Shown here one piece after another: positions 37,679-59,628 of a stretch of DNA of 64,000 nt; within the stretch, counting starts at the first letter, position 1, and each line of letters starts with the position of its first letter. The notes below the pieces were generated by a model that saw only the letters and a program-made list of their open reading frames with translations, did no database searches and was not told the origin of the DNA. Made by a program: the position numbers and the translations under genes. This stretch comes from Chlorobiota bacterium (lineage in GTDB: Bacteria > Bacteroidota > Ignavibacteria > Kapaibacteriales > NICIL-2): assembly GCA_039810585.1 (NCBI GenBank), contig JBDHXF010000006.1:12486-76485 (forward strand), given 5' to 3'.

Positions 37679-37737
37679 CGCTCTATTGTTCGTCAACTGT
37701 GATGGATGCCCGCAACCTAATGAGCGTAGAGTTGAAG

Positions 37738-37963
37738 ATGCTCTAAAAGCACGTCTTTGCGAGCGAAGCGAAGCAATCCCGTCAGCGCAGATCATCGCAT
37801 TGACGAGAATGCTTCGTCGCTTCGCTCCTCGCAGTGATGCGGAATTGTACATGCTCTGAAAGCAAGTCTTTGCGAGCGAATTGAAGCAATCCCGTCAGCG
37901 CAGATCATCGCATTGACGAGATTGCTTCGTCGCTCCGCTCGTCGCAGCGACGCGGAATTGCAA
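37738..37963. repeat. Two tandem copies of a 113-bp unit, each able to fold into a long imperfect hairpin
   Basis: Unit 1 is 37738..37850 and unit 2 is 37851..37963. Arms GAGCGAAGCGAAGCA / TGCTTCG(TCG)CTTCGCTC enclose an inner CGTCA/TGACG stem. Lies between convergent genes. Confidence 0.85.
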
Positions 37964-38018: not shown

Positions 38019-38735
38019 TCACACGCCCAGCAACTCCGCAACCTGTTCGTGCACTTGTTCCATCAGGGCAATTTCTTCATGGCGTGTGTACTCACGTGCT
38101 TCAATGGTCATCGGCTTGCCGATGCGCACAATCACTTTTCCCTTACGGAAGCGTAAGGTTGATTTCGGAAGGACGTGAAAGGTGCCGCTAATTGCGACGG
38201 GCACGATGGGACGTCCCGCCTTTATCGCCAGTATAAACGCACCACGTTTGAACTTTTGCAGAGAGCCGTCGGACGTACGTGTGCCTTCGGCAAAGACCAT
38301 AAGGTCGGAGGGATCGTTAGTGATGGCATCGACGGTGTGTTGAACGGTACTCATGGCATCGCGAGCTTTTTCCCGCACGATGGGAACGAAAGTGGAGTAT
38401 TTGAGCGACCAGCCCATGAATGGTACTTTTTCCAGTTCCTTCTTGTACATGATGCGCACGTCACGCCTGAGCGCGACCTGCATCACCGGAATATCGAAGA
38501 GCGAGGAGTGATTGACGATGAAGATGTACGACTGCTCTGGAGAGAGCAAGTCGAGTCCCTCAACCTTTACATCAACCCCAGAAAACCACAACACGCTGCG
38601 GCACCATGAGCGCACGTAGCCATAACAAATCTGTGCCCGACCGCCAAGAAGACTATGCGACAAGAAGGCAATACCGTGCAGAACCGTGGTACACACGATC
38701 CCAAACGTGCGCAGGATATATTCAGGAATGTTCAC
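38019..38735 (-). CDS. plsC: 1-acyl-sn-glycerol-3-phosphate acyltransferase
   Basis: H-x4-D motif (NHSSLFD), FAEGTRT and IVPVAI blocks. GTG start at 38735. Confidence 0.85.
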   Translation of the reverse strand: MNIPEYILRTFGIVCTTVLHGIAFLSHSLLGGRAQICYGYVRSWCRSVLWFSGVDVKVEGLDLLSPEQSYIFIVNHSSLFDIPVMQVALRRDVRIMYKKELEKVPFMGWSLKYSTFVPIVREKARDAMSTVQHTVDAITNDPSDLMVFAEGTRTSDGSLQKFKRGAFILAIKAGRPIVPVAISGTFHVLPKSTLRFRKGKVIVRIGKPMTIEAREYTRHEEIALMEQVHEQVAELLGV

Positions 38736-38810
38736 GAGGTGACCGAGAATTGAAGGATGTCATGCAAATTTCGCGTAAATTTGTCTTTCGATCACTGCAG
38801 ATCACACTCT

Positions 38811-38888
38811 GCTCGCTTAGCTCAGTCGGTTTAGAGCGTTCGCTTCACACGCGAGAGGTCACAAGTTCAAGTCTTGTAGCGAGCACCA
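38811..38888 (+). tRNA. tRNA-Val: tRNA-Val, anticodon CAC, with encoded CCA
   Basis: Hand-folded cloverleaf. Acceptor GCTCGCT/AGCGAGC. D stem GCTC/GAGC. Anticodon stem TTCGC/GCGAG with loop TT-CAC-AC. T arm ACAAG-TTCAAGT-CTTGT. Discriminator A then CCA (38886..38888). Confidence 0.9.
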
Positions 38889-38898
38889 ACTCACCTTC

Positions 38899-38931
38899 AA
38901 GCCCCTTTCTTCGAGAGAGCGGGCTTTTTTG
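38899..38931 (+). terminator. Probable terminator after tRNA-Val
   Basis: AAGCCC...GGGCTT stem followed by TTTTTT. Confidence 0.5.
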
Positions 38932-39157
38932 TTGTGTGGAAGGCTAGGACACTCACGGACCTTTATCGACACATGGCGATTGCTATCCCTTGGCGCCTGG
39001 TCCGTATACTCCACTCACCCCCACTTTGTCATAAAAACGAACCCTATAACGATGCGCAGCACACTTCAGACGTGTACTGAGTAAGCAAGAGCTCGCACGT
39101 CTCAAAATCCATCCTGTAAAGAATTTTGGGTCAGCGATTCAAGCAGAGTAACTCGAC

Positions 39158-39324
39158 AGCGAGCCACTCGCTCCCCCTCACAATCAGCTCCCCACAAACA
39201 GAAAAACCCCCAATCGCTGCAAAAACGAAAGGGAGTAGTTGCTTTTTCCACCACTTTATCCACATTTTGGACTGAAAGCGGTTCCCGAGTGGGTGGCTCA
39301 CCACCGCAATGCTTGTGTGGAAAT
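39158..39324. repeat. 167-bp direct repeat, copy 1 (left boundary of the nos cluster)
   Basis: 159/167 identical to 50053..50219 with no indels. The core 39196..39305 (110 bp) is identical. Contains AGCGAG-CCA-CTCGCT, TTATCCACA (39256..39264), the 17-mer CCGAGTGGGTGGCTCAC (39285..39301) and TGTGGAAA (39316..39323). Ends 5 nt from the fasciclin stop. Confidence 0.9.
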
Positions 39325-39329
39325 ATGGA

Positions 39330-39875
39330 TTACTTCTTTGCTAAGATGACGCCATCTATCACATGAATAATCCCATTCGATGCGCGGACGCTGGCGAGTA
39401 CTTTGGCGTCATCGATGTAGAGGGCGCCGTCTTTGCGGTGGATGGTGGCATTATTGCCATCGACCATACCCAGGACTTGGCCATCTTTGAGTGCGTCTGC
39501 TTCATACACGGCTACTGCAACGTGGTGTTGTAGTATGTCAGCTAGTTTTTCTTTATTCTCGGGTTTAAGTAAATCTTCAACCGTGCCTTTGGGCAGCTTA
39601 TCAAATGCAGCATTTGTTGGAGCGAATACAGTAAATGGTCCAGCATTAGCCAGTGAATTTACAAGATCGGCTGCTGTTACGGCAGTGACGAGTGTAGTGT
39701 GATCTGGTGATGCTACTGCAACTTTCACAATGTCTTTTGCAGATGTTGTGTCAACAACGGCCGATTGTCCTGTTCCGCCGGAGAGCGATTGCTCATTAGT
39801 TTTTGATGTATCGGTTTTGCAAGCGCTCAGTACGATGCTCAGGCAAGCGATAACGAGCCATGTTCGAATATTCAT
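39330..39875 (-). CDS. Fasciclin (FAS1) domain lipoprotein
   Basis: Lipobox LSAC. FAS1 motifs TVFAPTNAAFDKLP and NGIIHVIDGVIL. Confidence 0.85.
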   Translation of the reverse strand: MNIRTWLVIACLSIVLSACKTDTSKTNEQSLSGGTGQSAVVDTTSAKDIVKVAVASPDHTTLVTAVTAADLVNSLANAGPFTVFAPTNAAFDKLPKGTVEDLLKPENKEKLADILQHHVAVAVYEADALKDGQVLGMVDGNNATIHRKDGALYIDDAKVLASVRASNGIIHVIDGVILAKK

Positions 39876-39981
39876 ACAAGACCTCTATGGATGTGAGAAG
39901 GAAATTGGTTGGGTATGACGTAGTGTTTTATCTGGCGCGCAGATTTCCGGCGCTCCCCTAAGATTTCGTTTATTATTGCCG

Positions 39982-41277
39982 TTAAAACATCTTCCACTTT
40001 CTTTTTTCAGCGACGACGCTGTAGCGCAGAACATTCCAAAACCACATTGCGAGCATGGTTATCCAAAGCATCGATGCATAAACGTAGTGAGATGTCTGTG
40101 TCTGTGGCCACCAGGAAACTGAGATCCGAGTAAGCGCAGCAACGATAATGCATGCTCCCATCCACGGAAGGTAACTGCGCTTTTCTTCTTCCTGTGCCTG
40201 CGCAACACCGCTATGTGATACACTGACTCGGATTGAAACCATGATCGTCATCAATCCAAAACCGCCAATGAAAGCCAAATGCCAGAGATGAACTGACTGC
40301 TCGGGAAATGCCAGAACAAGTGCCGGCGTTAGCATCAGAGCCAGAATTGAAAACCAGATCATGAGCGAAAATCGATCCTTGCGCTCCGGCATTCGGTGAA
40401 TGTGGAAGACACGAAAGCCCGACCACCACAAGGCAGCGCCAATGAGTACCGAACCGATGCGCGTGAGCATTTCACTCTCGCATACAAATCCAGCCACGAC
40501 ACTGAGGAGAATCATCACATGTTCCGTCGTGACCAATAATGTTTGTGCTTTAAAATGCTGCTGACCATTAACCTCGGTCACGAGTTGAATTTTGTGGGCT
40601 TGACGCATGCCCAGAAAAGCCGGCAGTAATCGAAATCCAACTCCCAAGACCAACAGCAGGATCAAGCCTTTCAAAAAGAAGATTCGTGCAAATACATACA
40701 TCACAAATGGCAGTTCGATCCATTGTGCCAGCACCAGAGTCAGAAGTGAAGCTGTACCCAAAGCAAGTGCTGCCGCCACAAAGAGAAAAGAGTCGGGAGG
40801 ATTTTGTCCGCGCGCGCGAAATCGCTGTACTGCAAACACGTCCGTCCACACCATCATAAGTAGAAAACACATCAATGCCCATCGTTCGCTCATCAACACT
40901 TCAGCTACCAATGCACCCATACTGCAAGCTAATAGTGGTAAAAGATCTCGAACTCTCGCTAATGCACTTTGAGTAAAGCGCGGAAAGGCAGTCCATAGAA
41001 AACCAGTCGCAAAATTTAGCAGAAAGCCACCGCTCATCATGAGCGGATGAACACGGATGGGATTGCTTATCCACTGCACACTGTACAACACCCACACCAT
41101 AGCTCCCACAAAGGCATGCACAGCGCCTAGTGCAAACAAACTGCGATAGGGTTCGATTGGTGAGTCGAGCATACGACGAAGTGTAAAATCCTTTGCGGCT
41201 GCCGGCGTTCCTTCGTCCAATGCTGTTATGCCGGGCTTCCTTTTTTGGACGACTTCTTGCTCAGCACTGCTGTTCAT
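39982..41277 (-). CDS. NnrS-like polytopic membrane protein (431 aa, about 12 TM)
   Basis: VHPLMMSGGFLLNFATGFLWTAFPRFT resembles the NnrS signature H-x-H-E-x-x-x-G-F...GFLLTA-x-P-x-W-T. Size and nos/NO context fit. Assigned from memory of the family. Confidence 0.55.
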   Translation of the reverse strand: MNSSAEQEVVQKRKPGITALDEGTPAAAKDFTLRRMLDSPIEPYRSLFALGAVHAFVGAMVWVLYSVQWISNPIRVHPLMMSGGFLLNFATGFLWTAFPRFTQSALARVRDLLPLLACSMGALVAEVLMSERWALMCFLLMMVWTDVFAVQRFRARGQNPPDSFLFVAAALALGTASLLTLVLAQWIELPFVMYVFARIFFLKGLILLLVLGVGFRLLPAFLGMRQAHKIQLVTEVNGQQHFKAQTLLVTTEHVMILLSVVAGFVCESEMLTRIGSVLIGAALWWSGFRVFHIHRMPERKDRFSLMIWFSILALMLTPALVLAFPEQSVHLWHLAFIGGFGLMTIMVSIRVSVSHSGVAQAQEEEKRSYLPWMGACIIVAALTRISVSWWPQTQTSHYVYASMLWITMLAMWFWNVLRYSVVAEKRKWKMF

Positions 41278-41295
41278 AGCTCAGTGGTAGTAGTC

Positions 41296-42093
41296 TTAGA
41301 ATTGCACAGGAAAGTGTACCACACCTAGCTCTGTACCTCCCTGGCTCAAACGTAGTTGAATATCCCAGCCACCATGCATGTTCAGATTTGCCGCGGCTGC
41401 GAATTCGCCGTCACCGGTTGCTACCGGCTGCACATTACCATCCGACGACATATCCATCGTGGTCATGTGTGTGCTCATGCTTAAGTTCATCGTGCTCATT
41501 GCTTCGATTTGGGTTTGGGTGGAGTGACGATATATCCAAAATCGCAACGGGTTCATACCCATGCATGGGCTGGCCGACAAAGCACAAACGCAGAAATATT
41601 CTTGCCCGTCGCCACCCTGCAGTTTCTGCACGGCACTACTCGTCGGAACCGTGAGCTTCACCGTAAAGTCGTGCTCCGTGTCTGTCAAGTGATTGTGCAC
41701 ATGAACGTTCAGGCTCCAATCCTGTCCACTTATACTGGGCATCGTACAAACCATGGCACCCTCAAAAAGACCCAATGCATTCGGGGCAGTGCTCAACGGC
41801 TGCTCCATCGGCGCGTCATGAGTGCCGCCACTCATCGCCATACTAGCTTGCATTTCCACGTGTGCATCTTGTAACACTTGTCCATTGCAGGCGCACACGC
41901 ATCGAACGTACAGCTTGTTGTACCCTGCGTGTAACGTGTTGTCCGAGTAAATCTCTATTTGTGTATCGCCGTCGCTAAGCTCCGTAATCTTGGCCTTGTT
42001 AATACTTGGTAATGAGACCTCGGGCGCAGTCTGCTGCGAGCACGAACTCAACATCAGAGCAGTGAGTATCAGGGTGAGTAACGCTGTTTTCAT
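41296..42093 (-). CDS. Met/His-rich lipoprotein with two YtkA/FixH-like halves (265 aa)
   Basis: ATG 42093 gives MKTALLTLILTALMLSSC (lipobox). Met/His clusters HVEMQASMAMSGGTHDAPME and MSTMNLSMSTHMTTMDMS. Each half ends in a HGGW/QDW-type strand. Confidence 0.5.
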   Translation of the reverse strand: MKTALLTLILTALMLSSCSQQTAPEVSLPSINKAKITELSDGDTQIEIYSDNTLHAGYNKLYVRCVCACNGQVLQDAHVEMQASMAMSGGTHDAPMEQPLSTAPNALGLFEGAMVCTMPSISGQDWSLNVHVHNHLTDTEHDFTVKLTVPTSSAVQKLQGGDGQEYFCVCALSASPCMGMNPLRFWIYRHSTQTQIEAMSTMNLSMSTHMTTMDMSSDGNVQPVATGDGEFAAAANLNMHGGWDIQLRLSQGGTELGVVHFPVQF

Positions 42094-42179
42094 AGAGGTG
42101 ATAAACCGTGTTTGTGGAAATACTCTTCGCAAGATTTTTTTGCGAATGCGCTTCGCGCCATTCATTGAGAGCGCTGCCG

Positions 42180-43052
42180 TTAAAAGTCCTTTCGTAAGAA
42201 AGTGCGTCGTGCCACAATGACAGGAATGATGGCCCACATTGTGAGCACGCTCAAAGCCAGGCTCATTCCTTGCCAAGAACCAAAGAATTGCTTATAAATC
42301 GCTCCCGTATAACCCATTAAGGCTGATTGATCCAAAACAAGTGATAACATGATTCGAGAAAGATCGATTGGATTGAGAAAACTCAGCACTAAAGCGAAGC
42401 GCTCGGTCGGGTAATCACTAAGAGCGTAAAGCAGAAACAGAAAGAGTCCGTCGTACACAACAGCGCAGAAAAACCACACCATCAACGATGCACCAAATCC
42501 TTTCGCACGCTCATCCATTTTTGTGGCGATTGCGAAGGCAAGAGCGCTGAACGAACAGGTGAGAAGAGCCCCGTTGACCAGTAATAGAAGTGTTCGCCCT
42601 ATAAGGTCTCGATCTCCAAACGAGTGCGCGAGCAGGGGTATACCTGCTCCAACGCAGAAACTCAGGACGAGTGGCAATGATGTGGCCAAAAAAGACGACA
42701 CAAATACCGTCGATCGGCGCACCGGTTGCGACAAAAGCAATTCTGTGAATTCTCTGGTATTGTACACTTGCATCACACTAAACATGATGCTAATGAGCGG
42801 AACGACGATGGTCATGATACTCATAAGTGTCACAAAGACTTTGTCGGCCATACCGGTAAAGCGGAACAACCCCTCACTTAGAGCAACAAAGAACGCGAAG
42901 TAGATCAAGAGCCATTTGTTTCGAGCTGCGTTCCGCAGCTCTACCTTCAAAAGTGAATCGAGAGACGTTCTATGATGTGCGGCAATCAGAGATCTCTCTT
43001 GTGTACTCAGATCTTCAACACTATACGCCGATATGTAGGTACTAGTATTCAT
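42180..43052 (-). CDS. nosY: ABC-2-type permease NosY
   Basis: Six-TM ABC-2 permease translationally coupled (ATGA) to nosF within the nosDFY order. Confidence 0.8.
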   Translation of the reverse strand: MNTSTYISAYSVEDLSTQERSLIAAHHRTSLDSLLKVELRNAARNKWLLIYFAFFVALSEGLFRFTGMADKVFVTLMSIMTIVVPLISIMFSVMQVYNTREFTELLLSQPVRRSTVFVSSFLATSLPLVLSFCVGAGIPLLAHSFGDRDLIGRTLLLLVNGALLTCSFSALAFAIATKMDERAKGFGASLMVWFFCAVVYDGLFLFLLYALSDYPTERFALVLSFLNPIDLSRIMLSLVLDQSALMGYTGAIYKQFFGSWQGMSLALSVLTMWAIIPVIVARRTFLRKDF

Positions 43053-43771
43053 GCGGCTCTCCGAAACGTGACATTTTTCTGCAGTGACGAGACGGCTTGT
43101 TCAAATGATTGTTGACCCGTAGCATGTTGTAATTCAGACTTTGATCCATGAAAGAGCAGAGATCCTTCCAGAATAAACGCGATGTCGTCTGCTAACTCTT
43201 CAATCTCTGCAACAATGTGCGTGGTGAGAAGAATCGTCTTCTCCCTAGCTTTCTCCGTTATAATCAAGTCTTTCAGACGACGAGCCATGAGCGGATCCAA
43301 ACCTGCGGTAGGCTCATCTAGAATGAGAATGGGTGCATCAAACATCATTGCGGCAACAGCGCTCACTTTTTGTCGTGTTCCACCACTGAGAGACTTCATG
43401 TTCTTCTCTGCATGAGGCAGAAGCTCAAATACTTTAAATAGTTCATGGAGTCTTTTGGGCTCTTCTTCTCGTAGCTCCGAAATCATGCCGAGAACTTCGC
43501 GGATTGTCAAGTTGTCCGGATAGCGAGCCACTTGAGGCATGTACCCAATCTGCCGCCTATAACTACCATCATTGCTGACTGCAGTCCCACTAACGTGAAT
43601 AGTGCCACTATCGGGTTTTACTAATCCAAGAATACTCTTGATAAGAGTTGTTTTTCCGGATCCATTGGGACCCAACAATGCCGTTGTCCGGCCATAACCG
43701 AAATGCAACGAAAGGTTATCAAGCACCGGTATGTGAGAGTAGCACTTCCGCAATTGATTGAGATTTATCAT
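43049..43771 (-). CDS. nosF: ABC ATPase NosF
   Basis: Walker A GPNGSGKTT, signature LSGGTRQKV, Walker B LILDEPTAGLD. ATGA overlap with nosD. Confidence 0.9.
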   Translation of the reverse strand: MINLNQLRKCYSHIPVLDNLSLHFGYGRTTALLGPNGSGKTTLIKSILGLVKPDSGTIHVSGTAVSNDGSYRRQIGYMPQVARYPDNLTIREVLGMISELREEEPKRLHELFKVFELLPHAEKNMKSLSGGTRQKVSAVAAMMFDAPILILDEPTAGLDPLMARRLKDLIITEKAREKTILLTTHIVAEIEELADDIAFILEGSLLFHGSKSELQHATGQQSFEQAVSSLQKNVTFRRAA

Positions 43772-45012
43772 GAGAACGTCCTCAATGGCTTCATAGATGG
43801 CGCATCATCCTGCATGGTAGCAGGAGTAACGGTAGGAAAGATTGATTCTGCCAAGTCCAAGAGGGACACAAAGAAACTGTGGAGCAACAGCATTGCCGGC
43901 GAATTTTGCTCAACGATTGTAGAAAAAAGTCGAACGGGGCGGAAAGGCACGTCACCGACGCCATTTTTGTCTAAATCATACCCCGTATATCGATCCCAAT
44001 AATTCCCGTGAAATGTACTGTAAGCGGTATAATCGTTTGTTGCAACATCAAAACTGTTGGAGCTAAAGTTGTTTGAGTCAATCAGATTGTCGACGGAGCT
44101 TGCCATCAATCTCATCGCCCATCCATTTGAGATAAAGTTATTGCGGTAGATATGCATGGATCCACCACTTTCCGCGTAAATACCCGATGAATTGCCCTTG
44201 AAAACATTGTTACAAATCGTTGCGTGGGATATTTCTTTGAGTAAAAGCGCATAGGAAGCGTCGCCAAGATTATCCTCAAATACATTGTCTTTCATCAGAA
44301 TGTCGTGTGTATACATCACAGCTACACCAGAACCATTATGATGGAAACGATTCTGTTGATACTCGTTGTGGTGCGAAAACATGAAGTGCAAACCATAACG
44401 AATATTGCCCTTGCTTTCGTTGTTCATGACTCGAGTGTTGGTCGTAAACTCCAAGTAGATCCCGTCTCTATGTTGATCGACAACATTATTGCGGATCAAA
44501 TAGTCATCACAATACCAGCAGTGAATTCCATTCCCGGAAGCACTTTCACTGTTGGCATTACTTTGAATGAAATTGTTACTAATGGTATTGTGCTTACTCT
44601 TTGCTGAGTATATGCCATAGCTGCAGCACAGAATTGTATTCGCATCGATCACACAACCCTCCACAAATTTCAACCTGATCCCCGAGCGCTCGTAGATATA
44701 GGAGTCGCCTGTATGGCAAATGGTAAATCCGCGAATGGTGACATTATTTGAGGTCACTACGATTACCTCACAAGAATCAGCGCCATCAACCGTAACATCG
44801 CCATCTGCTATTAGTTGAATCGCCTTATCGACAACAATGGTACCTTCACAGTACCACCCTTTATGGACGCGAACAATATCACCCGCCTTTGTATTCTCAA
44901 GCGCACGATGTAGTGGCATTGGAAATACAGGATAGACGTCCACTGTCCTGCTGAAGGAATATTGCGTTGCGCTCAGGAAGAGTAGAATCAGCACGGGAAG
45001 TCGGCACTTCAT
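43768..45012 (-). CDS. nosD: Periplasmic right-handed beta-helix protein NosD
   Basis: Signal peptide. Repeated parallel-beta-helix units (NNxI...N pattern). Position immediately upstream of nosF and nosY. Confidence 0.85.
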   Translation of the reverse strand: MKCRLPVLILLFLSATQYSFSRTVDVYPVFPMPLHRALENTKAGDIVRVHKGWYCEGTIVVDKAIQLIADGDVTVDGADSCEVIVVTSNNVTIRGFTICHTGDSYIYERSGIRLKFVEGCVIDANTILCCSYGIYSAKSKHNTISNNFIQSNANSESASGNGIHCWYCDDYLIRNNVVDQHRDGIYLEFTTNTRVMNNESKGNIRYGLHFMFSHHNEYQQNRFHHNGSGVAVMYTHDILMKDNVFEDNLGDASYALLLKEISHATICNNVFKGNSSGIYAESGGSMHIYRNNFISNGWAMRLMASSVDNLIDSNNFSSNSFDVATNDYTAYSTFHGNYWDRYTGYDLDKNGVGDVPFRPVRLFSTIVEQNSPAMLLLHSFFVSLLDLAESIFPTVTPATMQDDAPSMKPLRTFS

Positions 45013-45064
45013 GTCAATGCGTCATAAATGGATACTTTTAACGTCAGAAATCGACTGAGAATTA

Positions 45065-46138
45065 CTACCAGGTTTTAGCGACAAGCAGTCGTGCGCTATC
45101 GAAATAGTACAACTCACCTCCATTGGTGGCGTGAGAAGCCTCGTATGCCTCTTTCGTGCCATACGCACTCAGGTTTAGGCCCATGGGACTCGGAAGTTTT
45201 TCGGATTTGAGATACCATGCCTTTCGTGCGGCGATAAGATTGCCAGGGTTAGCATAGTCCACTACCCATTCTGTTGCGATATCGTCCGGATCAACTGATT
45301 TGTCTTGCTCGAAGCCAAGCATACATTCAATGCTATCAAACTTGTAGACTTTTGTCTTCTTTGTAATGAGCTCGGCACCAAAGCGTTGGTCTGTAATGGT
45401 CATTTTACAGTGAGCACATTCCTCGCTACCAAAGTGGATTGCCTCAGCCTTATCTGAGCACGCATTCAGGGCGAAGCACATCCCGAGAAGAGCGACTCCC
45501 ACGAGCCCCTCATTTATTCGAGCGGCGGAACCGCCGCTCGAATTCAACGACACTTGAGCGTTCTTCTTTTGAATCGGTTTCGACTTCCACCAGGTAAAAG
45601 CTCCAAGCGCAAGTGAAACAAACATGAGGTAACCACCAACGCCCGGAAGGGAAAGCGCGTGGAAGTTCAGAAGCTGTTTGCCACCAATCAGTGGTGGTTG
45701 ATAGGTCATGTCCGGGATGCAAATTGCGGCGTGAGGATTGAGATTGTGGCCGTAATCATATTCCCAGTTATAGAAATCTATCATTCCAGCTACTCCCAAA
45801 GCAATAAACACTACCACCCAAGAGAGCAACATCCATCGTTTTCCAAACGCGACAACGGCCAATGCGAGCACAATAAGGGAGGCTACGATTGTTGGCATGT
45901 AGCGCAATTCGGCAATACTGTCAGGTTCAATTCGCTTCATTCCGATGTAGTGGTTGAGGTTATTAATACTAGCCAAATCCTGTTCTTTTTCTCCGACTAT
46001 TGTGTTGATGTGGATTCGAAGACCCAAGCCCTCCGGATATTGAGGCGCCTCCAAGTTTATTTGCCATAGTGGGAAGGCGTATAGACCGCAAAGGAGTACA
46101 GCGCTAATTGCAATAAGTATGCGGTGTGTAGTGTTCAT
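45065..46138 (-). CDS. nosL: Single ORF joining a NosB-like 4-TM membrane domain to a NosL-like copper-chaperone lipoprotein domain
   Basis: The N-terminal half has four TM helices directly downstream of a Sec-type nosZ, which is the NosB position. The C-terminal half has its own lipoprotein-type signal (GLVGVALLGMCFALNAC) and a NosL-like core (CAHCKMTI...KFDSIECM...PSPMG). ATG 46138. Confidence 0.7.
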   Translation of the reverse strand: MNTTHRILIAISAVLLCGLYAFPLWQINLEAPQYPEGLGLRIHINTIVGEKEQDLASINNLNHYIGMKRIEPDSIAELRYMPTIVASLIVLALAVVAFGKRWMLLSWVVVFIALGVAGMIDFYNWEYDYGHNLNPHAAICIPDMTYQPPLIGGKQLLNFHALSLPGVGGYLMFVSLALGAFTWWKSKPIQKKNAQVSLNSSGGSAARINEGLVGVALLGMCFALNACSDKAEAIHFGSEECAHCKMTITDQRFGAELITKKTKVYKFDSIECMLGFEQDKSVDPDDIATEWVVDYANPGNLIAARKAWYLKSEKLPSPMGLNLSAYGTKEAYEASHATNGGELYYFDSARLLVAKTW

Positions 46139-46261
46139 GTGATAACCCGACAATTGGTGAGAAGAATGGTGAATGCACGTGTGTGGCAGCGGCACAATTC
46201 TGAATTCTGCTGCGTGAAGGGAATGCGCCATTCACTGCACATCCCCTTCACTGTGCGCTCG

Positions 46262-48235
46262 TTACTCTTCAAGCTTTGGAGTCGATCCAGTCGACAATGG
46301 AACGCTTGATCCGGCGGGAGAAACCCGGATGTAGCCTTGCATTTCTTGATGGAGCGCAGAGCAGAAATCTGTGCAGTAAAATGGTTGAATGCCGGCTGTC
46401 TTTGGAGTCCACTTAAGCGTTTGTGTTTCTCCGGGCATTATGAGGAGTTCGGAATTATCTGCGCCGCGGATAGCAAAGCCGTGAGGCACGTCCCAGTCTT
46501 GCTCAAGGTTCGTCACGTGGAAGTACACGACATCACCAACATGCACTCCTTCGATATTGTCCGGTTTGAAGTGCGATCGAATCGAAGTCATATATACATG
46601 TACTTCATTTCCTTTGCGTTCCACTCTCGCGTCTTTTTCGCCCATCGCCACGAATGGGTGCTTACTCTCTGTCAGCTTGAAACTCTTGACGGAGTTCTTT
46701 TCAAGCAGCGTTGCAGGACACATTTGCGCATAATGTGGCTCTCCTACTGTTGGGAAGTCAAGTAGCAATTTCATTTTGTCTCCACTGATATCGAATAGCT
46801 GTGCGGACTGGCATAGTTCCGGTCCCGTGGGGAGATACCGGTCCTTTGTAATTTTGTTCAGAGCAACCAGATATTTTCCGGTCGGATTTCTGTTATCGCC
46901 GCCAGCCACACATAAGTGACCAATGGAGTAGTACGTAGGCTGTCTGTCCACTACGGAAAAGTCTTTGAGGGACCATTTCACGACTTCCGAACTGACGAAC
47001 ATGGATGTGTAGGCAAATCCTTTTCCATCGAATTCCGTATGCAGCGGTCCTAATCCTGGCTTCTTGACTTCGCCGGCCAGGGCGGCTTCGTACTTAATAA
47101 TTGGAATGCCATTCACATCGCCTGCGAATTCCTTGTTTTCTATTGCCTTCAAGAGCTTCGTGTACGAGAAGACCGGAATGATAGCTGCCAGCTTACCGCT
47201 TGCTGCTATGTACTCGCCTGTGGGATCTACGTCGCAACCGTGTGGAGATTTTGGCGCAGGAATGAGATACACTAATCCGGGACACTCTTTTGGATCAAGC
47301 TGTATGCATGAGTTTTCCATGGTGGAGTTTGCGCTGTGCGTAGACTCATCATAGTGGTTGTGTGCGTATTGACAAGGAACGGTCTTCCCTTTACCTTGTG
47401 CCACATACTCCTCGGCTTTTTTCCAATTTATTGCCGCGACAAAGTCCTTGTCGTTTTGGCTTGCATTCACCTCTAGCAAGGTATTTGCCTCCTCGGAGTT
47501 ATAACAACTGAAGAACATCCAACCATGTGACTTATCTTTTCCTGCACATGCTAAGTCGTAGTCAAACGGTGGCATGTTGATTTGAAAGGCGAGCGACATT
47601 GTCCCACTCTTTGGGTCAACTTTCACGAACGATGCACGACCATGGAAATTTTGCTTGTACGAGTCAATCGGCACGTCAGAATTCGATTCGTCTGGTAGTG
47701 AGAAGCGTGATGCGGATACCACATACTCAGTTCCTTGAGTCGTGTACGGCGACCCGTGATTTCCACCTGTGTTTGGAATTTCAATGATTTCGGCAGTGCG
47801 GAATGTCGACAGATCGATTCGAGCAATACGCGGGGTATTGTTGCAGTTCGCGAAGAGCCATCGACCATCGTCGTTCCCATCTGTTCGACTCAGCTGCAAG
47901 TGGTGCTGGTCATCCCAAGGGATGAACCCTCGCGAGGTCATTAGCATGGGTTTTGTTTCCTCACTGTATCCCCACCCACTCTCTGGATTTTGCGAGAACA
48001 CAGGTATAGTGCGAAACAACCGACCGCTTGGAACCCCGTAGACACCAATCTGACCACTAAAACCACCGGACGTAAACAAGTACATTTCGTCATGCTTACC
48101 AGGCGGCACGAAAACTCTCGATGCAGCATCACCATCCGTCATTGCTGTTTTCGAGGATGCCGGACATCCGTTGAAGTTCAGTGCTATCAGAATGATAGCA
48201 ACGACTCCGACCGTTAGACTAACAAGGTATTTCAT
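46262..48235 (-). CDS. nosZ: Nitrous-oxide reductase NosZ, Sec-dependent (clade II/atypical) type
   Basis: 657 aa. N-terminus MKYLVSLTVGVVAIILIALNFNGC has no twin-arginine motif. Propeller His ligands are present. C-terminal CuA site FYCTDFCSALHQEM. Confidence 0.95.
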   Translation of the reverse strand: MKYLVSLTVGVVAIILIALNFNGCPASSKTAMTDGDAASRVFVPPGKHDEMYLFTSGGFSGQIGVYGVPSGRLFRTIPVFSQNPESGWGYSEETKPMLMTSRGFIPWDDQHHLQLSRTDGNDDGRWLFANCNNTPRIARIDLSTFRTAEIIEIPNTGGNHGSPYTTQGTEYVVSASRFSLPDESNSDVPIDSYKQNFHGRASFVKVDPKSGTMSLAFQINMPPFDYDLACAGKDKSHGWMFFSCYNSEEANTLLEVNASQNDKDFVAAINWKKAEEYVAQGKGKTVPCQYAHNHYDESTHSANSTMENSCIQLDPKECPGLVYLIPAPKSPHGCDVDPTGEYIAASGKLAAIIPVFSYTKLLKAIENKEFAGDVNGIPIIKYEAALAGEVKKPGLGPLHTEFDGKGFAYTSMFVSSEVVKWSLKDFSVVDRQPTYYSIGHLCVAGGDNRNPTGKYLVALNKITKDRYLPTGPELCQSAQLFDISGDKMKLLLDFPTVGEPHYAQMCPATLLEKNSVKSFKLTESKHPFVAMGEKDARVERKGNEVHVYMTSIRSHFKPDNIEGVHVGDVVYFHVTNLEQDWDVPHGFAIRGADNSELLIMPGETQTLKWTPKTAGIQPFYCTDFCSALHQEMQGYIRVSPAGSSVPLSTGSTPKLEE

Positions 48236-48337
48236 AAATACTCCATGAATTGGAAGATGTGACTTTCGACTACTGCCGTAGTGTGAATGCAGAGTGGTAT
48301 TCCCCTGACCGCCTGCATAGTGATTATTTTAGTAATT

Positions 48338-48844
48338 CTAATTTCGTTTTGAGTTATTGGCGTCATATTTCACACCGACTCGGCGTAGGTGTTCAAGTAC
48401 GCTACGGGCGTCGTTGGGATCGACTATCATATTGGGCATTTTTAACATGTAGGTTTGCAAAAGGCAGCGTACAGTGTCGTCGTTTTCAACCATCACATCC
48501 GTATCAAGTATCATATTCATGATGTACTCGGGTGCTCTGCGGTGGGTCACGCCACCTAATCCAGGTCCCACGTAGCGCTGGTCATAACGGTGACAAGCCG
48601 TGCACGTTGTTTGGAAAATTTTTTGTCCCTTATCCGCTAAGGCTCCATCTATAGCGGAATCGAGTTTAACTTCTTTGATTTTATAGTAATTCGGTTTCTC
48701 CTGAACCTGCAGACCCGGTGCCGGTGCGGATGTATCTGCAGTTTTCGTATCTGATGTGTTTTTCTGTGTACACGATTGCATGACAAACAACAGCGTAACA
48801 ATCAAGGCAACCCTACATGAGGTGTGCGTCTCTATGCTTTTCAT
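48338..48844 (-). CDS. Mono-haem c-type cytochrome upstream of nosZ (NosC-like position)
   Basis: Signal/lipobox-like N-terminus. A single CTACH haem motif with a distal Met (LKMPN). Confidence 0.85.
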   Translation of the reverse strand: MKSIETHTSCRVALIVTLLFVMQSCTQKNTSDTKTADTSAPAPGLQVQEKPNYYKIKEVKLDSAIDGALADKGQKIFQTTCTACHRYDQRYVGPGLGGVTHRRAPEYIMNMILDTDVMVENDDTVRCLLQTYMLKMPNMIVDPNDARSVLEHLRRVGVKYDANNSKRN

Positions 48845-48867
48845 AAGTCGTATTTTGGTTAATGTGT

Positions 48868-48884
48868 ATATGATACTATCATAT
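48868..48884. promoter_or_regulatory. Perfect 8-1-8 palindrome ATATGATA-C-TATCATAT, a candidate operator
   Basis: Lies 24-40 nt upstream of the cytochrome c/nosZ start, in the 133-bp spacer downstream of the Rrf2 regulator gene. Confidence 0.4.
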
Positions 48885-48977
48885 CTAAATATCTTAAAAT
48901 CTATTACTCGACATGTCTTGGTGTGAGCCTTTAATGATATATAGTACTACAATATCCCATATTGTTACGATGCCCTA

Positions 48978-49439
48978 TCAAGATACCGCAGTCTCTGCTT
49001 GGTGGTGTTTTTTGGCCAGAGCAATCATGTTACCTACAGTTTCTGTTCCGTCGTTAAGAGAATGACTTTTTAACATTGATTGAAACTGACGCTTTTGAAT
49101 CGCCCAAGACGAGTGCATGACACAAGGATGATTAGCATCGCATTCGGGAAGCTTCAGTAAGCATTCTGTTTCAAAGCGACTTACATCACCTAATGCAGTC
49201 ATGATATCCCAAATAGAAATATCATCGGCACTCTTGGCAAGTGTGATCCCACCCTTTGTACTTCGAACTGACCTCGTAATTCCATGCTCACTTAAGCGCT
49301 GTAATATCTTTTTCAGAAAGTGATACGGTACACCTAACTCGGAAGCAATTCTGTGAGTTGGCACGAAAGTGCTTGTCTTAACTTCACGAGCTAAGTAGAG
49401 GCTGGCCTGTATACCATATGCGCATGTTAGTGAAAGCAT
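48978..49439 (-). CDS. Rrf2-family transcriptional regulator with three clustered Cys (NsrR/IscR-like)
   Basis: N-terminal wHTH (YGIQASLYLA...VPYHFLKKILQRLSEHGI). Cys cluster ECLLKLPECDANHPC. Confidence 0.85.
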   Translation of the reverse strand: MLSLTCAYGIQASLYLAREVKTSTFVPTHRIASELGVPYHFLKKILQRLSEHGITRSVRSTKGGITLAKSADDISIWDIMTALGDVSRFETECLLKLPECDANHPCVMHSSWAIQKRQFQSMLKSHSLNDGTETVGNMIALAKKHHQAETAVS

Positions 49440-50052
49440 CTACCGAATATATTATATGGGACTAAAATATCTCATTACAAATCTAATGAGCGTTGGGTCT
49501 ATTTGCAAATATTTTTTGAAGATCTTTTTTTCTTAAGCAAGATTGAGGCTCAACATGAAAGAGTATCGACGTCAGACAGCCTTGACGTGCACTAAGCACT
49601 TGGGCTCTCCAAATCGACACTCTTGTGCCTGAGATTATTGGGAATTTCTGTCATAAACCCCTAGACGATCTCAAGTGCGCCATGCTGGCAAGGCGAACTC
49701 TGCAGCCTGGAAACAGCTTTTTCGTGTATCTAGCGAAAACTGCAGAAGCAAGCGGAAGTACTTAATAGTTTCAAAGTTGGATAAACTCGCTGTCGGTTAT
49801 TCAGACAATGTGAGTTGCACTGAGACACAGCATCGACGCATCTAAGCAGAATCCTTCGTGGCCGTGTCGGTCAGCTTCCTAAGCACATTGCCGGTACTCG
49901 CTCGACATGGTGTTCCGCAGAGGTAAAGTTAGCCGGATTAGCCATGGCAAACTCACCAAAGCCGACCTCGTGCGCGAAGTAAACCGCTAAACCCATTATC
50001 GACAAGAAACAACCCATCAAATTTTCGCGATGAACTCAGAATTTTACAGTGT

Positions 50053-50219
50053 AGCGAGTCACTCGCTCCCCCTCACGATCAATTCCCCAAAAACAGAAAA
50101 ACCCCCAATCGCTGCAAAAACGAAAGGGAGTAGTTGCTTTTTCCACCACTTTATCCACATTTTGGACTGAAAGCGGTTCCCGAGTGGGTGGCTCACCACC
50201 TCGATGCTTATGTGGAAAT
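50053..50219. repeat. 167-bp direct repeat, copy 2 (right boundary of the nos cluster)
   Basis: See copy 1. Same orientation, offset 10,895 bp. Confidence 0.9.
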
Positions 50220-50340
50220 CGACGCGTCGCTAATGAACCAAAACACTGCCTTCGTTGCTCCTCCTTATACCATCCGCTGATAACCTGCCAGGACGCTCGA
50301 AAAACGCCTCATCCCGGAACTGTTGTTCCTCAAAGCGTCG

Positions 50341-50435
50341 ATCCGATCTGAAAGACCGATGTACGTTATCCACAGGTTGTCCACAATTGCCGTTTTTGGT
50401 GAGAGGCTCAGTGTGACCGAACAGTGACTGGTTCA
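50341..50435. repeat. Intergenic repeat B1 (about 69% ungapped identity to 54178..54272) with adjacent TTATCCACA and TTGTCCACA boxes
   Basis: Hand alignment gives 66/95 identical positions. The shared block is ACGTTATCCACA. Confidence 0.5.
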
Positions 50436-50838
50436 TTCGATCTAAGCTGAGCGTTTACATTAACATAAAGGTATAGGCGGCTGAGTTTCAAAAGGTGTAG
50501 CGAGTGACTCGCTTATGCCTGAACGGCTTCCGTTCGTTGGGCTTTTCCGTGGCTTTCTTTAACATAAACGGACGGAAATGTCTCGCGCAATTGCTTCGAA
50601 TTGTCTGATCCTTGATTATTGTGTAACGGTATGTTCACGCTAAGCCCATACTCGCCGCATTCGTTTGCGCGAAGCGCGAACGAATTAAATGGGCTTTTAA
50701 TATGCTGTTTCATGTGACAGCCTACCGAGTTCATCTGCCTCACACAGACAAATGCCCCACTCGAATGAGTGAGGCATTGGAAGTTGGGTCTTGTGAGATA
50801 TGGTTTCGCTCTCGCAGGCGAAAGTATCTGAGCTGTGC

Positions 50839-52866
50839 TTATCGAACGATGACCGTTTTTTCAAGGAGTGAGCCGAGGTGTTCACCTTTCACGACCAGGT
50901 AGTAGGCATCACCGTCGACGGGTGTTCCGTTATCGTCGCGTTTGTCCCAGCGAATAGTGCTTGTGCCCATGTTCAGATCGCTTTTGAATTGGCGAACGCG
51001 TTGACCAATGGAGTTGTAGATGTTGACCACGGCAGTCTCAGGGACGGTTGCATCCACTTGAAGCTGTATGTCGCTTGCGTCGGTGCTAGGATTTGGGAAG
51101 ATGCGATGATTCGTTGGAAGCTCAGAGCCTTTGTCGGGCACGTCCGTAGCCATCGAGACACTAAGGAATTCTGCCATGATCGGTGTCAAGTCAGTATTAT
51201 CCAGTAAGCCTCTTCCGGTGATCTTGGAGGCATAGGTGCCGTTCACATTGTCGTCGGCGAGGACGAGAATGTCTTGCGGAGTGTGATTACCGGGTGTTCC
51301 GCCGACGGTCGAGCCATTGCCGTTGGTAACAGGATTTGAGCCATAGGCGATAACAATACGACGACCGTTTGCCGGAGCTTGTGGGTACAACTTACCTTGG
51401 AAGTCAACCATCGAGTATTCCGGGAACCAACCATTGGTGGCAACGTCTCCGCGCGTGATGTTAACGGGAGTTGGTGTGAAGATTGGCTTGGTCGGAGTGT
51501 TGGCATAGGTACGAATTTTTGTACCGTTCTTTTGCAGGTCTGCTTCGTCGTGCAATCCAACAACCGCAAAACCTCCGCATTCGTGATCGCTCGTTGCCAG
51601 AATAAGAGTTTGCGAGGAGTTGTCGCTCAAGAGTTCACGTCCGGCCTCCACTGCGTAATCATAGGCAAGTACTTCTTTGATCATATAGTCCGAACCATAG
51701 AAACCTTGGGCAACGGTCGTGTCACCGTTATAGATGCGATCGTCAGGGACTGCCTGCAAGTCTGCGTTGACAACGTAATTCTTTTTGTCGGCACTGAAGC
51801 CGATACCACCGCAGTTAGCGTGCTCAAGGTGATCGATACGGCCACCTTCCACCATCAGGATAAAACCCTTGTCGCTCTTGCGCTTCAGAACTTCAATGGC
51901 GGCGGTGCACATATCGCTGAGCGATGGTTCGTGTTGGAAGCTGAGCTGACGGTCTTGCTCATAGGAACAGTGTGAATCGCGAAAGAGTCCAAGGAGTTTC
52001 TTGTTGTTCGTTGAACTAAACTGTGAGTAATCCAGTCCCAACAATGCATCACGACTGTTGACATAACTGTAGCCGCGCTGTTTGGCTATTTCGATGACGT
52101 CGACTTTGTCGGCGCGTTTGCCCTTGCCAAGACTGATGTTTACACCGTTCTTTTGCATTGCGTTTCCACTACGATCGCGTACGATGTTATTGCCGGCCGC
52201 ATCGCCGCTGGGTGTGAAATGTCTGGCGCCACCACCAAGTAGTACGTCAACTTCAACACCGACTTTTGGAGTGGGGAGAACCCAATCGCGAGACGGTAGG
52301 TATCGCATGGAGTCGACCGGACTGGCGTTAAAGATGGCTTCGTAGTCTGCTTCTGACGCCGATAAAAACTGTGCAGCGATATAGTCTTCTAAGTCACGTT
52401 CCCAAATGTGACTGGCCCACACTGCCGGAGTAGCGTGTGTTATGCGAGTAGTAGTAACGAGTCCAACAGCATAGCCAGCCTTTTTCGCTTCCTCCATGAT
52501 TGTTTTTATAGCCTCGTAGTTCGAGGGGTTCATGGTGACACACTCATTATCAATCTTTCCATTTGTTCCGCAGGCATAGCAAGCAGCACCAGGCGCTGAG
52601 TCCGTGATCCACGAGTTAAGCGAGTGCGTTGTAATCGTTGCCGAATAACGGAGCTTGTCCAAGGCAAGCTTTCTGAAGTTAGGATCCGTGCTGAATCGTG
52701 CGTCCGATTTGCCTTGTCCTAACGCCATACGCGTAGCGGTCTTGGGCGCGATCCCGAAGCCATCACCAATAAAGACAATTACATTTTTCTTTTGCGCAAA
52801 TGCGCTCGTAGCAACTACCAACAACATCCCCAGGCAGAGTGCCTTTCGGGTTAAAGACAGTACCAT
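50839..52866 (-). CDS. phoA: Alkaline phosphatase (PhoA family) with T9SS C-terminal sorting domain
   Basis: Signal peptide. GDGFG. Active-site ITDSAPGA. Metal-site SDHECGG. C-terminus IFPNPSTDASDIQL...VNIYNSIGQRV...YYLVV is a T9SS CTD. Confidence 0.9.
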   Translation of the reverse strand: MVLSLTRKALCLGMLLVVATSAFAQKKNVIVFIGDGFGIAPKTATRMALGQGKSDARFSTDPNFRKLALDKLRYSATITTHSLNSWITDSAPGAACYACGTNGKIDNECVTMNPSNYEAIKTIMEEAKKAGYAVGLVTTTRITHATPAVWASHIWERDLEDYIAAQFLSASEADYEAIFNASPVDSMRYLPSRDWVLPTPKVGVEVDVLLGGGARHFTPSGDAAGNNIVRDRSGNAMQKNGVNISLGKGKRADKVDVIEIAKQRGYSYVNSRDALLGLDYSQFSSTNNKKLLGLFRDSHCSYEQDRQLSFQHEPSLSDMCTAAIEVLKRKSDKGFILMVEGGRIDHLEHANCGGIGFSADKKNYVVNADLQAVPDDRIYNGDTTVAQGFYGSDYMIKEVLAYDYAVEAGRELLSDNSSQTLILATSDHECGGFAVVGLHDEADLQKNGTKIRTYANTPTKPIFTPTPVNITRGDVATNGWFPEYSMVDFQGKLYPQAPANGRRIVIAYGSNPVTNGNGSTVGGTPGNHTPQDILVLADDNVNGTYASKITGRGLLDNTDLTPIMAEFLSVSMATDVPDKGSELPTNHRIFPNPSTDASDIQLQVDATVPETAVVNIYNSIGQRVRQFKSDLNMGTSTIRWDKRDDNGTPVDGDAYYLVVKGEHLGSLLEKTVIVR

Positions 52867-53094
52867 AACGTTCCCTCGATAAATAAATAATGGAGTTTCT
52901 GTGGAAAGTGTTTTTCTTCAGCTCTCAAAGCGCTCTTTCCCAATGCAGTCGCGAAACTATGGTCGAGGTATTGGCCTGTCTTTACGCCAACAATACGAGA
53001 GATCAAGCCATGGTTACCTTTTGGTAAGATTCTTCCTTGCCGCTCGATCTCAAAGTAATTTTGATCTTCTGCTTTATTGCAATCTCTTTATACA

Positions 53095-54177: not shown

Positions 54178-54272
54178 AACCGATCTAAATCGCCGGTCTA
54201 CGTTATCCACATATTCACTACAAATACCGTTGTAGGCGAGAGTCTCGCTCTGACCAAGAAGCGCATGGCTTA
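54178..54272. repeat. Intergenic repeat B2 (paralogue of 50341..50435) with TTATCCACA at 54203..54211
   Basis: Starts immediately after the stop codon of the propeller gene. Confidence 0.5.
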
Positions 54273-54328
54273 ACCCAACCATCCCGTGCATTCACAGGCA
54301 GATAGCAAAAACAGCAACGCGATGATCG

Positions 54329-54357
54329 GGGCCTAAGCGAGTGACTCGCTTAGGCCC
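54329..54357. terminator. 13-bp-arm perfect palindrome GGGCCTAAGCGAG-TGA-CTCGCTTAGGCCC between convergent genes
   Basis: Read directly from the sequence. Ends 7 nt from the icd stop. Confidence 0.6.
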
Positions 54358-59450: not shown

Positions 59451-59628
59451 GTCAGTGAGCTATGTCAGTGCAGTAATTACCCTCGTCTCCCCTCCCACCC
59501 GTATTCACACAAGACCGTAGATTTACGGATGCTTAAGGTCGCACGTGACCCCTACATTGAGCGTTCAAGGCAAATGCCGTTGATTCTTTATATTGATCGA
59601 CGAACGACACTCTACGCTCAATTTTTCC

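Follow-up and report, generated by a model that had tools for sequence, protein, structure and literature searches.

The nos locus and its repeats

This report concerns a nitrous oxide reductase (nos) operon of a Chlorobiota bacterium and the two long direct repeats that bracket it. The operon lies in a 64-kb stretch of DNA (GenBank assembly GCA_039810585.1, contig JBDHXF010000006.1, positions 12,486 to 76,485), which was analysed as a whole and is called the window throughout; all coordinates are positions in the window unless another locus is named, and loci from other genomes carry numbers (L002, L003 and so on). The repeat is termed R, a direct repeat of 167 nucleotides (nt) with the copies R1 and R2. 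The operon, its repeats and the neighbouring tRNA gene are as follows.

38811-38888, + strand: tRNA-Val(CAC), by ARAGORN and Rfam RF00005 (67.6 bits), with its 3' end toward the island
39158-39324, + strand: R1, 167 nt, starting with the palindrome AGCGAGCCACTCGCT, with TTATCCACA at 39256-39264 and a REP-like 17-mer at 39285-39301 (- strand)
39330-49439, - strand: clade II nos operon of ten genes, from Pfam and NCBIfam matches, GC content at third codon positions (GC3), codon log-odds and homology to relatives' modules
39330-39875, - strand: fasciclin protein (Pfam/NCBIfam)
39982-41277, - strand: NnrS (Pfam/NCBIfam)
within 41296-42276, - strand: YtkA-like His/Met-rich lipoprotein (Pfam/NCBIfam)
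42180-43052, - strand: ABC-2 permease, NosY (Pfam/NCBIfam)
43049-43771, - strand: ABC ATPase, NosF (Pfam/NCBIfam)
43768-45012, - strand: NosD, by TIGR04247 (386 bits, cutoff 300) and Pfam NosD
45065-46231, - strand: NosL-domain fusion protein, three transmembrane-like segments in its N-terminal part followed by NosL (Pfam)
46262-48235, - strand: NosZ, by the Sec-dependent model TIGR04246 (917.6 bits, cutoff 625)
48338-48844, - strand: cytochrome c (Pfam/NCBIfam)
48978-49439, - strand: Rrf2 (Pfam/NCBIfam)
49440-50052, - strand: non-coding leader of rrf2, 613 nt, GC 0.445
50053-50219, + strand: R2, 167 nt, with the palindrome at 50053-50067, TTATCCACA at 50151-50159 and the REP-like 17-mer at 50180-50196

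Judged from these matches, the operon is a clade II (Sec-dependent) nos cluster, with a Sec-type NosZ, nosD, nosF, nosY and nosL, and a cytochrome c. NosZ reaches 343 bits with the TAT-type model, against the 917.6 bits of the Sec-dependent one, and its N-terminus (MKYLVSLTVGVVAIILIALNFNGC) is a signal peptide without a twin arginine. An Rrf2 regulator, a c-type cytochrome, nosZ, nosD, nosF, nosY and nosL, and NnrS are typical of the clade II scaffolds of bacteria of the FCB (Fibrobacterota, Chlorobiota and Bacteroidota) group (PMC6264515).

R1 and R2 lie in the same orientation, 10,895 nt apart from start to start, and are identical at 159 of 167 positions (95%) without gaps. The eight mismatches (repeat positions 7, 25, 30, 31, 38, 149, 151 and 158) all fall near the repeat edges, leaving a core of 110 identical nt at positions 39-148 (39196-39305 and 50091-50200); a run of this length has a probability of P = 0.0011 if eight mismatches are placed at random. 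The ends of R are sharp, since identity in the 20-60 nt beyond either end is 13-25%, the level expected by chance, and a 47-mer from the core matches R1 and R2 alone in the window (0 expected). R1 ends 5 nt from the stop codon of the fasciclin gene. R2 directly adjoins the 613-nt rrf2 leader and follows no gene stop codon, the closest confirmed upstream gene end being 620 nt off. An initial sequence-only reading of this DNA had described two 167-bp repeats with a 110-bp core and no indels, the first of them 5 nt from the last stop codon, around ten co-oriented genes and about 600 bp of non-coding DNA; the repeat search and MAFFT alignment, the re-measured distance and the Pfam and NCBIfam annotation all agree with that description.

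The leader of rrf2 belongs to the nos module, because all of the relatives' modules have a long, AT-rich leader at the same place. Across the four nos modules compared, including that of the window, this leader is 443-626 nt long and free of open reading frames (ORFs); in the relatives it lies at L002 8019-8644, L003 8373-8889 and L005 3764-4206. Length and AT-richness are all that the window leader has in common with these three, as no sequence similarity to them beyond shuffled controls was found, and the leaders of L002 and L003 have one 20-nt match in common. The best promoter-like site before rrf2 is TTGTAA-18-TATAAT (49480-49451, - strand). Its -35 region is overlapped by a perfect inverted repeat, CTCATTA-N6-TAATGAG (49471-49490), which is a candidate operator for the Rrf2 regulator.

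On the other side of the operon, the 3' end of tRNA-Val lies 269 nt from R1, and the tRNA gene has a terminator-like hairpin and T-run of its own at ~38898-38930.

Composition and codon usage

The sequence-only reading had judged the nosD-nosF-nosY stretch AT-rich by eye, and the deviation is measurable across the whole operon. GC content is 0.43-0.49 across 39-50 kb, against ~0.51 elsewhere in the window, and mean GC3 is 0.479 for the ten nos genes against 0.602 for the 35 other genes (Mann-Whitney p = 7e-6). Codon log-odds, in which the usage of the window backbone (leave-one-out) is compared per codon with that of the relatives, are negative for all ten nos genes (-0.011 to -0.091) and positive for 29 of 31 backbone genes. 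This deviation is not intrinsic to nos genes, because in relatives with the same module the GC3 of nos equals that of its own flanks.

Genomic context in relatives

The interval that holds the operon is delimited by two backbone genes, and two further genes lie between R2 and the right-hand one.

38019-38735, - strand: acyltransferase, first left backbone gene, 74% identical to its L011 ortholog
50839-52866, - strand: alkaline phosphatase PhoA of the type IX secretion system (T9SS) type (Pfam)
53077-54177, + strand: Reg_prop protein (Pfam)
54364-55815, - strand: isocitrate dehydrogenase (ICDH), first right backbone gene, followed by LysR, ABC, ABC-2, TPR and TPR genes, syntenic in L010 and L011

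The ICDH is 83% identical to that of L010 and 74% identical to that of L011 (GCA_044228285.1). In L011 the backbone has been kept on both sides, on the right as TPR, TPR, a 234-aa protein, ABC-2 (81%), ABC, LysR and ICDH, and on the left as the acyltransferase (74%), a methyltransferase (85%), CheW, a HEAT protein, CheR (85%) and a response regulator. The interval between ICDH and the acyltransferase holds six unrelated genes in 4.8 kb in L011, where nos, PhoA, Reg_prop and the tRNA are absent; in the window it spans 15.6 kb, with Reg_prop, PhoA, R2, nos, R1 and tRNA-Val, and in L010 yet another gene set follows ICDH. Because the window, L011 and L010 differ in content here, the interval is a gene-flux hotspot. 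The operon is thus absent from the homologous site of a relative with conserved flanks, albeit a distant one (ICDH 74%), and among the relatives compared nos was not seen at the same locus without repeats. The collections searched yielded no conspecific genome, and the nearest relatives found are 64% identical in PhoA and 83% in ICDH. Relatives of PhoA were also checked for an empty site; the best are 61-64% identical, and they keep the RegProp-PhoA pair with other neighbours and no tRNA. The more distant ICDH relatives L012 and L013 gave no useful synteny.

The nos module itself recurs elsewhere. The closest NosZ proteins, 84, 83 and 82% identical, belong to the same module in L002, L003 and L004/L005, where the gene order is rrf2, cytochrome c, nosZ, nosL, nosD, nosF, nosY, an optional YtkA-like gene, NnrS and fasciclin. 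These modules stand in three contexts unrelated to that of the window, and no flanking repeats and no tRNA were found beside them. Conversely, the spacers of the window contain no remnants of the relatives' flanking genes (such as the TPR gene found after fasciclin in L002 and L003) and no integrase. On the basis of composition and synteny, the nos operon has very probably been acquired horizontally into a gene-flux hotspot.

Make-up of the repeats

R is a mosaic of three short motifs which recur in other intergenic regions of the window. The first is the palindrome AGCGAG-N3-CTCGCT, which opens R exactly. It is found seven times in the window (10430, 10553, 39158, 50053, 50499, 54235 and 54336) where 0.14 copies are expected, always between genes and for the most part no more than 20 nt from a stop codon; outside R, three copies (10430, 10553 and 54336) lie a few nt past gene ends and two (50499 and 54235) further downstream. 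The arms of this palindrome are also the acceptor-stem strands of tRNA-Val (GCTCGCT and AGCGAGC), and its loop is CCA in two copies, which may be coincidence.

The second motif, TTATCCACA, is the DnaA-box consensus 9-mer and lies in the middle of the R core. Five exact copies are present in the window, all on the + strand (0.43 expected), and each lies within a repeated intergenic element: R1, R2, the two members of a second repeat pair described below (E3 and E4), and one copy of an 85-nt element (26212-26296). Allowing one mismatch raises the count to 29 sites (11.6 expected), of which 22 are on the + strand. Four such DnaA-box sites form a mini-cluster within 390 nt (49996-50385), in the long non-coding region around R2. 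An origin of replication at this ~50-kb cluster was ruled out, as the cumulative GC skew has no extremum there.

The third motif is the 17-mer GTGAGCCACCCACTCGG near the right end of R, with six copies in the window (0.1 expected), four of which make up two REPIN-like inverted doublets with 3-5 nt spacers (26212-26250 and 26449-26487). Both doublets belong to the 85-nt element, which occurs twice between a porin gene and a gene for a methyl-accepting chemotaxis protein (MCP), at 26212-26296 and 26449-26533, 237 nt apart and with 91% identity. Each copy opens with the inverted doublet and a T-run (+ strand), followed by TTATCCACA in the first and TTATGCACA in the second; the T-run opposes the orientation of the flanking genes, both of which are on the - strand.

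The nos module contains none of the three motifs. Nor do the palindrome and the 17-mer turn up in 13 loci of other genomes (~200 kb, L012 and L013 left out), where TTATCCACA has only a chance hit, in L001. Since its motifs belong to host intergenic DNA and are absent from the module and from relatives, R is host-type DNA that was not brought by the module.

Beyond the window, R has no evident counterpart in the collections scanned. A 20-mer from R gave one chance hit among 185,579 species-representative genomes, in a Vulcanimicrobiota metagenome-assembled genome (MAG) of 67% GC where the similarity does not extend; a 28-mer gave no hits in JGI metagenomes and a 21-mer none in IMG/VR, and blastn against PLSDB and INPHARED returned no match. 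A search of metagenomes for the REPIN-doublet pattern returned one unrelated 5-kb contig. The sequence-only reading had left the number of R copies to be counted; the count is two in 64 kb and none in these public collections, whose scans say nothing on the source genome itself.

These observations bear on an explanation in which R belongs to a dispersed REP-, MITE- or terminator-like intergenic family and brackets the operon by chance, nos having been acquired otherwise, for instance by a double crossover in the flanks. The recurrence of its motifs in other intergenic regions is what such a family would show, as are the hairpin elements that are common in the window a few nt past stop codons, the other intergenic duplicates that bracket nothing, and the lack of any recombinase in the window. 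L011, too, has a palindromic element, with three copies in 21 kb, two of which lie in the same hotspot. Against this, R occurs only twice in 64 kb, both times exactly at the borders of an operon with atypical codon usage, and the E pair likewise borders a second module. R2 stands behind no stop codon, with 620 nt to the nearest confirmed upstream gene end, and R-like sequence was found in none of the public collections scanned (which do not include the source genome). A generic REP or terminator family, which had been named as a way in which a cassette at this locus might be disproved, is a mixed case, with the whole of R in only two copies but its motifs dispersed in host intergenic DNA. On balance, we consider chance bracketing by a dispersed family rather unlikely, though it is the main rival to the reading favoured below.

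The element in L011 is ~95 nt long and consists of CTGAG-N3-CTCAG hairpins (L011 1754-1851, 15464-15557 and 16112-16205; 89-97% identical). Two of its copies flank a DUF1801 gene in the hotspot and the third lies between two backbone TPR genes. A GAG-N3-CTC hairpin core is common to the window and L011, while the sequences around it are lineage-specific. In the window, a 119-nt unit is repeated head-to-tail at 37729-37960 (90% identity), in the intergenic region where the methyltransferase and acyltransferase genes converge, and a long GC-rich hairpin (GCGAGCGAAGCGAAGCA...TGCTTCGTCGCTTCGCTC) can fold from each unit. Coding sequence is duplicated as well: paralogous MCP genes (22521-24869 and 26684-28861) are 69% identical over 850 nt, and two 659-aa TPR proteins in tandem (59593-61572 and 61669-63648), the second of which also matches PMT_2, are ~66% identical and have been kept as a pair in L010 and L011.

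A different explanation would make R a functional cis element or small RNA (sRNA) gene (a terminator, an insulator, an mRNA-stabilising 3' structure or a DnaA site) which is needed in two copies and whose core is under selection. The core is indeed conserved, with a perfect DnaA-box 9-mer in its middle that R shares with two other, independent repeat families, E3/E4 and the 85-nt element, and R1 is located where the operon terminator should be. The predicted fold of the - strand is moderately unusual (z = -2.1), but that of the + strand is not unusual (z = -1.1), and R contains neither a sigma-70-like promoter nor a canonical intrinsic terminator. Apart from the tRNA, Rfam gave no match at gathering thresholds across the whole window, nor at E <= 1 in 38700-39500 and 49400-50900. 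Two near-identical copies provide no covariation, and there is no gene end for R2 to serve. A selected function as the reason for the two copies seems very unlikely.

A second module and its repeat pair

The atypical region does not stop at R2. It extends over 39.3-54.2 kb, and codon log-odds are negative for all 12 island genes, that is, the ten nos genes together with PhoA (-0.013) and Reg_prop (-0.032), which are non-host in usage but more mildly so. PhoA and Reg_prop are conserved together elsewhere in distant relatives (L006-L008), and in the window they too lie between two copies of a repeat.

50343-50516, + strand: E3, left copy of the second direct-repeat pair (self-BLAST), carrying ACGTTATCCACA toward the left end and, at 50499-50513, the palindrome AGCGAGTGACTCGCT
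54180-54353, + strand: E4, right copy of the second pair (alignment), with a terminal hairpin at 54329-54357

E3 and E4 have 105 ungapped identities in 174 positions (60%), where the next-best match anywhere in the window has 70 of 174. In both, ACGTTATCCACA lies close to the left end, and the palindrome AGCGAGTGACTCGCT stands in register at the right end. E4 starts 2 nt past the stop codon of Reg_prop, and from the end of its terminal hairpin it is 6 nt to the stop codon of ICDH (54364). The gap of 1.4 kb between rrf2 and phoA is unusually long for an otherwise compact window. Two short ORFs within it, 50230-50436 (68 aa) and 50513-50743 (76 aa), both on the - strand, have no Pfam match and an odd composition and overlap E3; they are unlikely to be genes.

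The more diverged pair (E, 60%) thus accompanies the less atypical genes, and the younger pair (R, 95%) the strongly atypical nos operon. This pattern is suggestive of two insertions, one after the other, with a resident element duplicated each time. If both modules were excised by recombination at their repeats, a plausible ancestral convergent region would be left: tRNA-Val, 269 nt, R, 123 nt, E, ~10 nt and the ICDH stop codon.

A succession of two modules, both with a repeat pair of their own, could also be read as the work of a site-specific recombinase encoded elsewhere or since lost, for which R and E would be attachment (att) sites and nos a non-autonomous element, mobilised in trans, with attL and attR sharing 167 nt. 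The sharp ends of R and its perfectly identical core of 110 nt would suit such sites, as would their place beside the 3' end of a tRNA and the 6-3-6 palindrome with which each repeat opens or closes and which could be a recombinase binding site; the occurrence of the nos module in different contexts among relatives is also in keeping with it. A Pfam search for mobility genes covered the 45 main ORFs of the window (35 besides the ten of nos) and ten stop-free translations of 54-107 aa from 49440-50838. It detected no domain of an integrase, transposase or relaxase in either set, which extends to the whole window what the sequence-only reading had noticed for the operon. The R motifs are host-typical rather than element-typical, and the relatives' nos modules have no flanking repeats. 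R is also not tRNA-derived: alignments of tRNA-Val to R1, R2, E3 and E4 score within shuffled controls, so that the tRNA gene, confirmed at its place by ARAGORN, is no more than a neighbour. A search of both strands for a pair of RYYYAAC and GTTRRRY core sites at the ends of R1, R2, E3 and E4 gave none, which rejects R as an attC site. Taken together, this makes recombinase att sites an improbable explanation.

Proposed route of insertion of the nos operon

We tentatively favour, at somewhat under even odds, a reading in which the R pair is mechanistically tied to the insertion of nos, as a resident intergenic element that was duplicated or recombined in the process. It is favoured because the bracketing is exact, the ends are sharp, R has only two copies in 64 kb and the E pair is a parallel case, and further because repeat divergence tracks codon amelioration and the mismatches sit at the edges. 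It and the alternatives set out in this report are not all mutually exclusive.

The inserted unit would comprise R1, the nos genes, the leader and R2 (10.9 kb), with an acquired regulator, its long leader and nine structural or accessory genes, and it encodes nothing for its own mobility. Both nos borders would be marked by 167 nt of hairpin-rich intergenic DNA of the recipient, duplicated at the time of the insertion. The most likely route would be a single Campbell-type homologous crossover between the R already in place and a module in circular form with a single R, which is the simplest established route to an arrangement of repeat, insert and repeat without an enzyme encoded by the element. 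The 110-nt identical centre of R would then be a heteroduplex or gene-conversion tract, and mismatches confined to the edges are as expected of such a tract. An older event of the same kind may have placed the PhoA-RegProp module between E3 and E4.

Several points weigh against the insertion reading. A Campbell circle must already carry a host-type R, so that the first junction of R and module is pushed back a step, and no recombinase domain was found among the 45 main ORFs. The lineage has intergenic hairpin duplicates which bracket nothing special (the pair at 26212-26296 and 26449-26533, the tandem at 37729-37960 and the L011 element). To stand a few nt past a stop codon seems usual for elements of this window (10430, 10553 and 54336), and the 5-nt distance of R1 from a stop codon is therefore not specific. 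Finally, there are just two repeat pairs (n = 2) from which to connect repeat divergence with codon amelioration. The idea of a cassette, as first proposed from the sequence, consequently holds in part: foreign composition, absence from L011 and modularity speak for it, the tRNA is no more than a neighbour, and the dispersed-element alternative is still alive.

Splitting of a pre-existing tandem R-R by the insertion was also considered and is unlikely. The insert would have had to land exactly between the two tandem copies on both occasions, once in R and once in E, and what lies to the right of R1 does not match what lies to the right of R2.

The contig evidently comes from a metagenome assembly. 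An assembly chimera, in which the nos segment was threaded in by way of a shared repeat, might be suspected from the shift in composition at or near both repeats and from an identical core which, at 110 nt, is shorter than typical final k-mers. Such a chimera would need R at both ends of nos in the true genome too, so the bracketing would persist. The R motifs are host-specific and absent from nos-carrying relatives, and a donor sharing R would have to be nearly conspecific. The eight edge mismatches give each R copy a unique context, and the atypical PhoA-RegProp genes beyond R2 mean that the compositional boundary is not simply at the repeats. We regard a chimera as barely credible.

Whatever their origin, R1 and R2 offer homologous recombination a perfectly identical substrate of 110 nt. 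This length exceeds the minimum for efficient homologous pairing, and RecA-dependent recombination is known to resolve direct repeats by precise deletion, circle formation and tandem amplification, and to integrate circles in the Campbell manner. At this locus, recombination of R1 with R2 would delete the operon precisely and leave tRNA-Val, one R, E3 and phoA, with the predicted junction ...GCAGAGTAACTCGAC-[R]-CGACGCGTCGCTAATG...; the product would be a circle of 10,895 bp, able to re-enter any genome with R, and unequal sister-chromatid exchange at R would amplify the operon. The predicted junction of the circle or tandem is ...GAATTTTACAGTGT-[R]-ATGGATTACTTCTTTGC.... With a spacing of 11 kb and only 167 nt of homology, these events are predicted to be rare.

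A bolder generalisation, which we put forward as quite improbable, is that ~170-nt hairpin-bounded elements such as R and E are capture or exchange sites for whole operons in this FCB-group lineage and are duplicated at each insertion. The resident element would be duplicated from hairpin to hairpin, either by widely staggered nicks at the hairpins or by a trans-acting enzyme such as a nuclease of RAYT/HUH type. Beside tRNA-Val, nos and then PhoA-RegProp would form a series of operon-sized, repeat-bounded cassettes, much like an integron array, and such cassettes could circulate in the population as circles that RecA can resolve.

The evidence shows acquisition and the architecture of the repeats; mobility would be a further step. 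The anatomy of the repeats, the foreign composition, the absence from a relative's syntenic site and the modularity of the operon are direct observations; the tie between duplication and insertion, the crossover and present-day excision would follow from them only indirectly.

Significance

No biological sink for N2O is known other than NosZ, and FCB-group carriers of clade II nosZ are abundant in soil, sediment and wastewater. The bracketing of nos by R would be a credible route to loss, amplification or movement of the operon. If it is true that nos operons sit between recombination-competent repeats in hotspots, then N2O reduction would be a trait gained and lost at the level of strains, and not a stable property of taxa, which would affect the reading of nosZ marker-gene surveys and of inferences made from MAGs; recombination between R copies would offer a simple route to the loss, amplification or transfer of nos.

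Comparison with known systems

Islands that carry nos genes have been described before. The nosRZDFYLX cluster lies beside trnS-GGA in Bradyrhizobium japonicum USDA110 and is missing from USDA6 (PMC3927601), and in Methylacidiphilum caldifontis IT6 the nos genes lie in a predicted genomic island (PMC11102522). The present locus resembles such islands in that a complete cluster is present or absent between related genomes, neighbours the 3' end of a tRNA, is atypical in composition and appears to have been acquired. It differs in that the cluster is of clade II, in a host that only the names of more distant hits place in the FCB group near Ignavibacteriota, and is bounded by 167-nt intergenic repeats that are not tRNA-derived and lie 269 nt from the tRNA, with no integrase. 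A tRNA island of the tyrosine-integrase kind can be rejected for the same reasons, namely the lack of an integrase domain and repeats which are not a copy of the tRNA 3' end and lie 269 nt away, although two traits of such islands are present (the 3' end of tRNA-Val faces the island and the composition is atypical). A composite transposon is likewise rejected, since R is non-coding and 167 nt long, no target-site duplication is present at either copy, and there is no transposase.

Integron cassettes and clusters of attC sites lacking integron integrases (CALINs) also have structured repeats that bound modules and start a few nt past the last stop codon, with modules in series at one locus. The present locus has, in contrast, no intI and no R''/R' core sites; each module lies between two copies of the same repeat rather than between successive different attC sites, and the cargo is a ten-gene operon with its own regulator and promoter. 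REP, REPIN and BIME elements offer another parallel, in the inverted doublets of GTGAGCCACCCACTCGG and the short GC-rich palindromes past gene ends, of which R holds one each. Unlike these elements, R is a non-palindromic composite of 167 nt with two copies in 64 kb, and no RAYT gene is present in the window.

A closer parallel is the nitrogen-fixation island of Pseudomonas stutzeri, which lies between cobS and gshP and has been described as 'anchored', with repeats in both flanking intergenic regions (PMC4174501). As here, an operon-scale metabolic module occupies a fixed intergenic hotspot between flanking repeats without an integrase or transposase; the repeats of the P. stutzeri island are 6-14 nt long, whereas those described here are direct, nearly identical and 167 nt long, and a second pair surrounds the neighbouring module. 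The locus therefore fits an anchored genomic island in the broad sense and of an ordinary kind, and it goes beyond the known examples in the length and near-identity of its repeats, in their origin from host hairpin elements and in having a second example next door.

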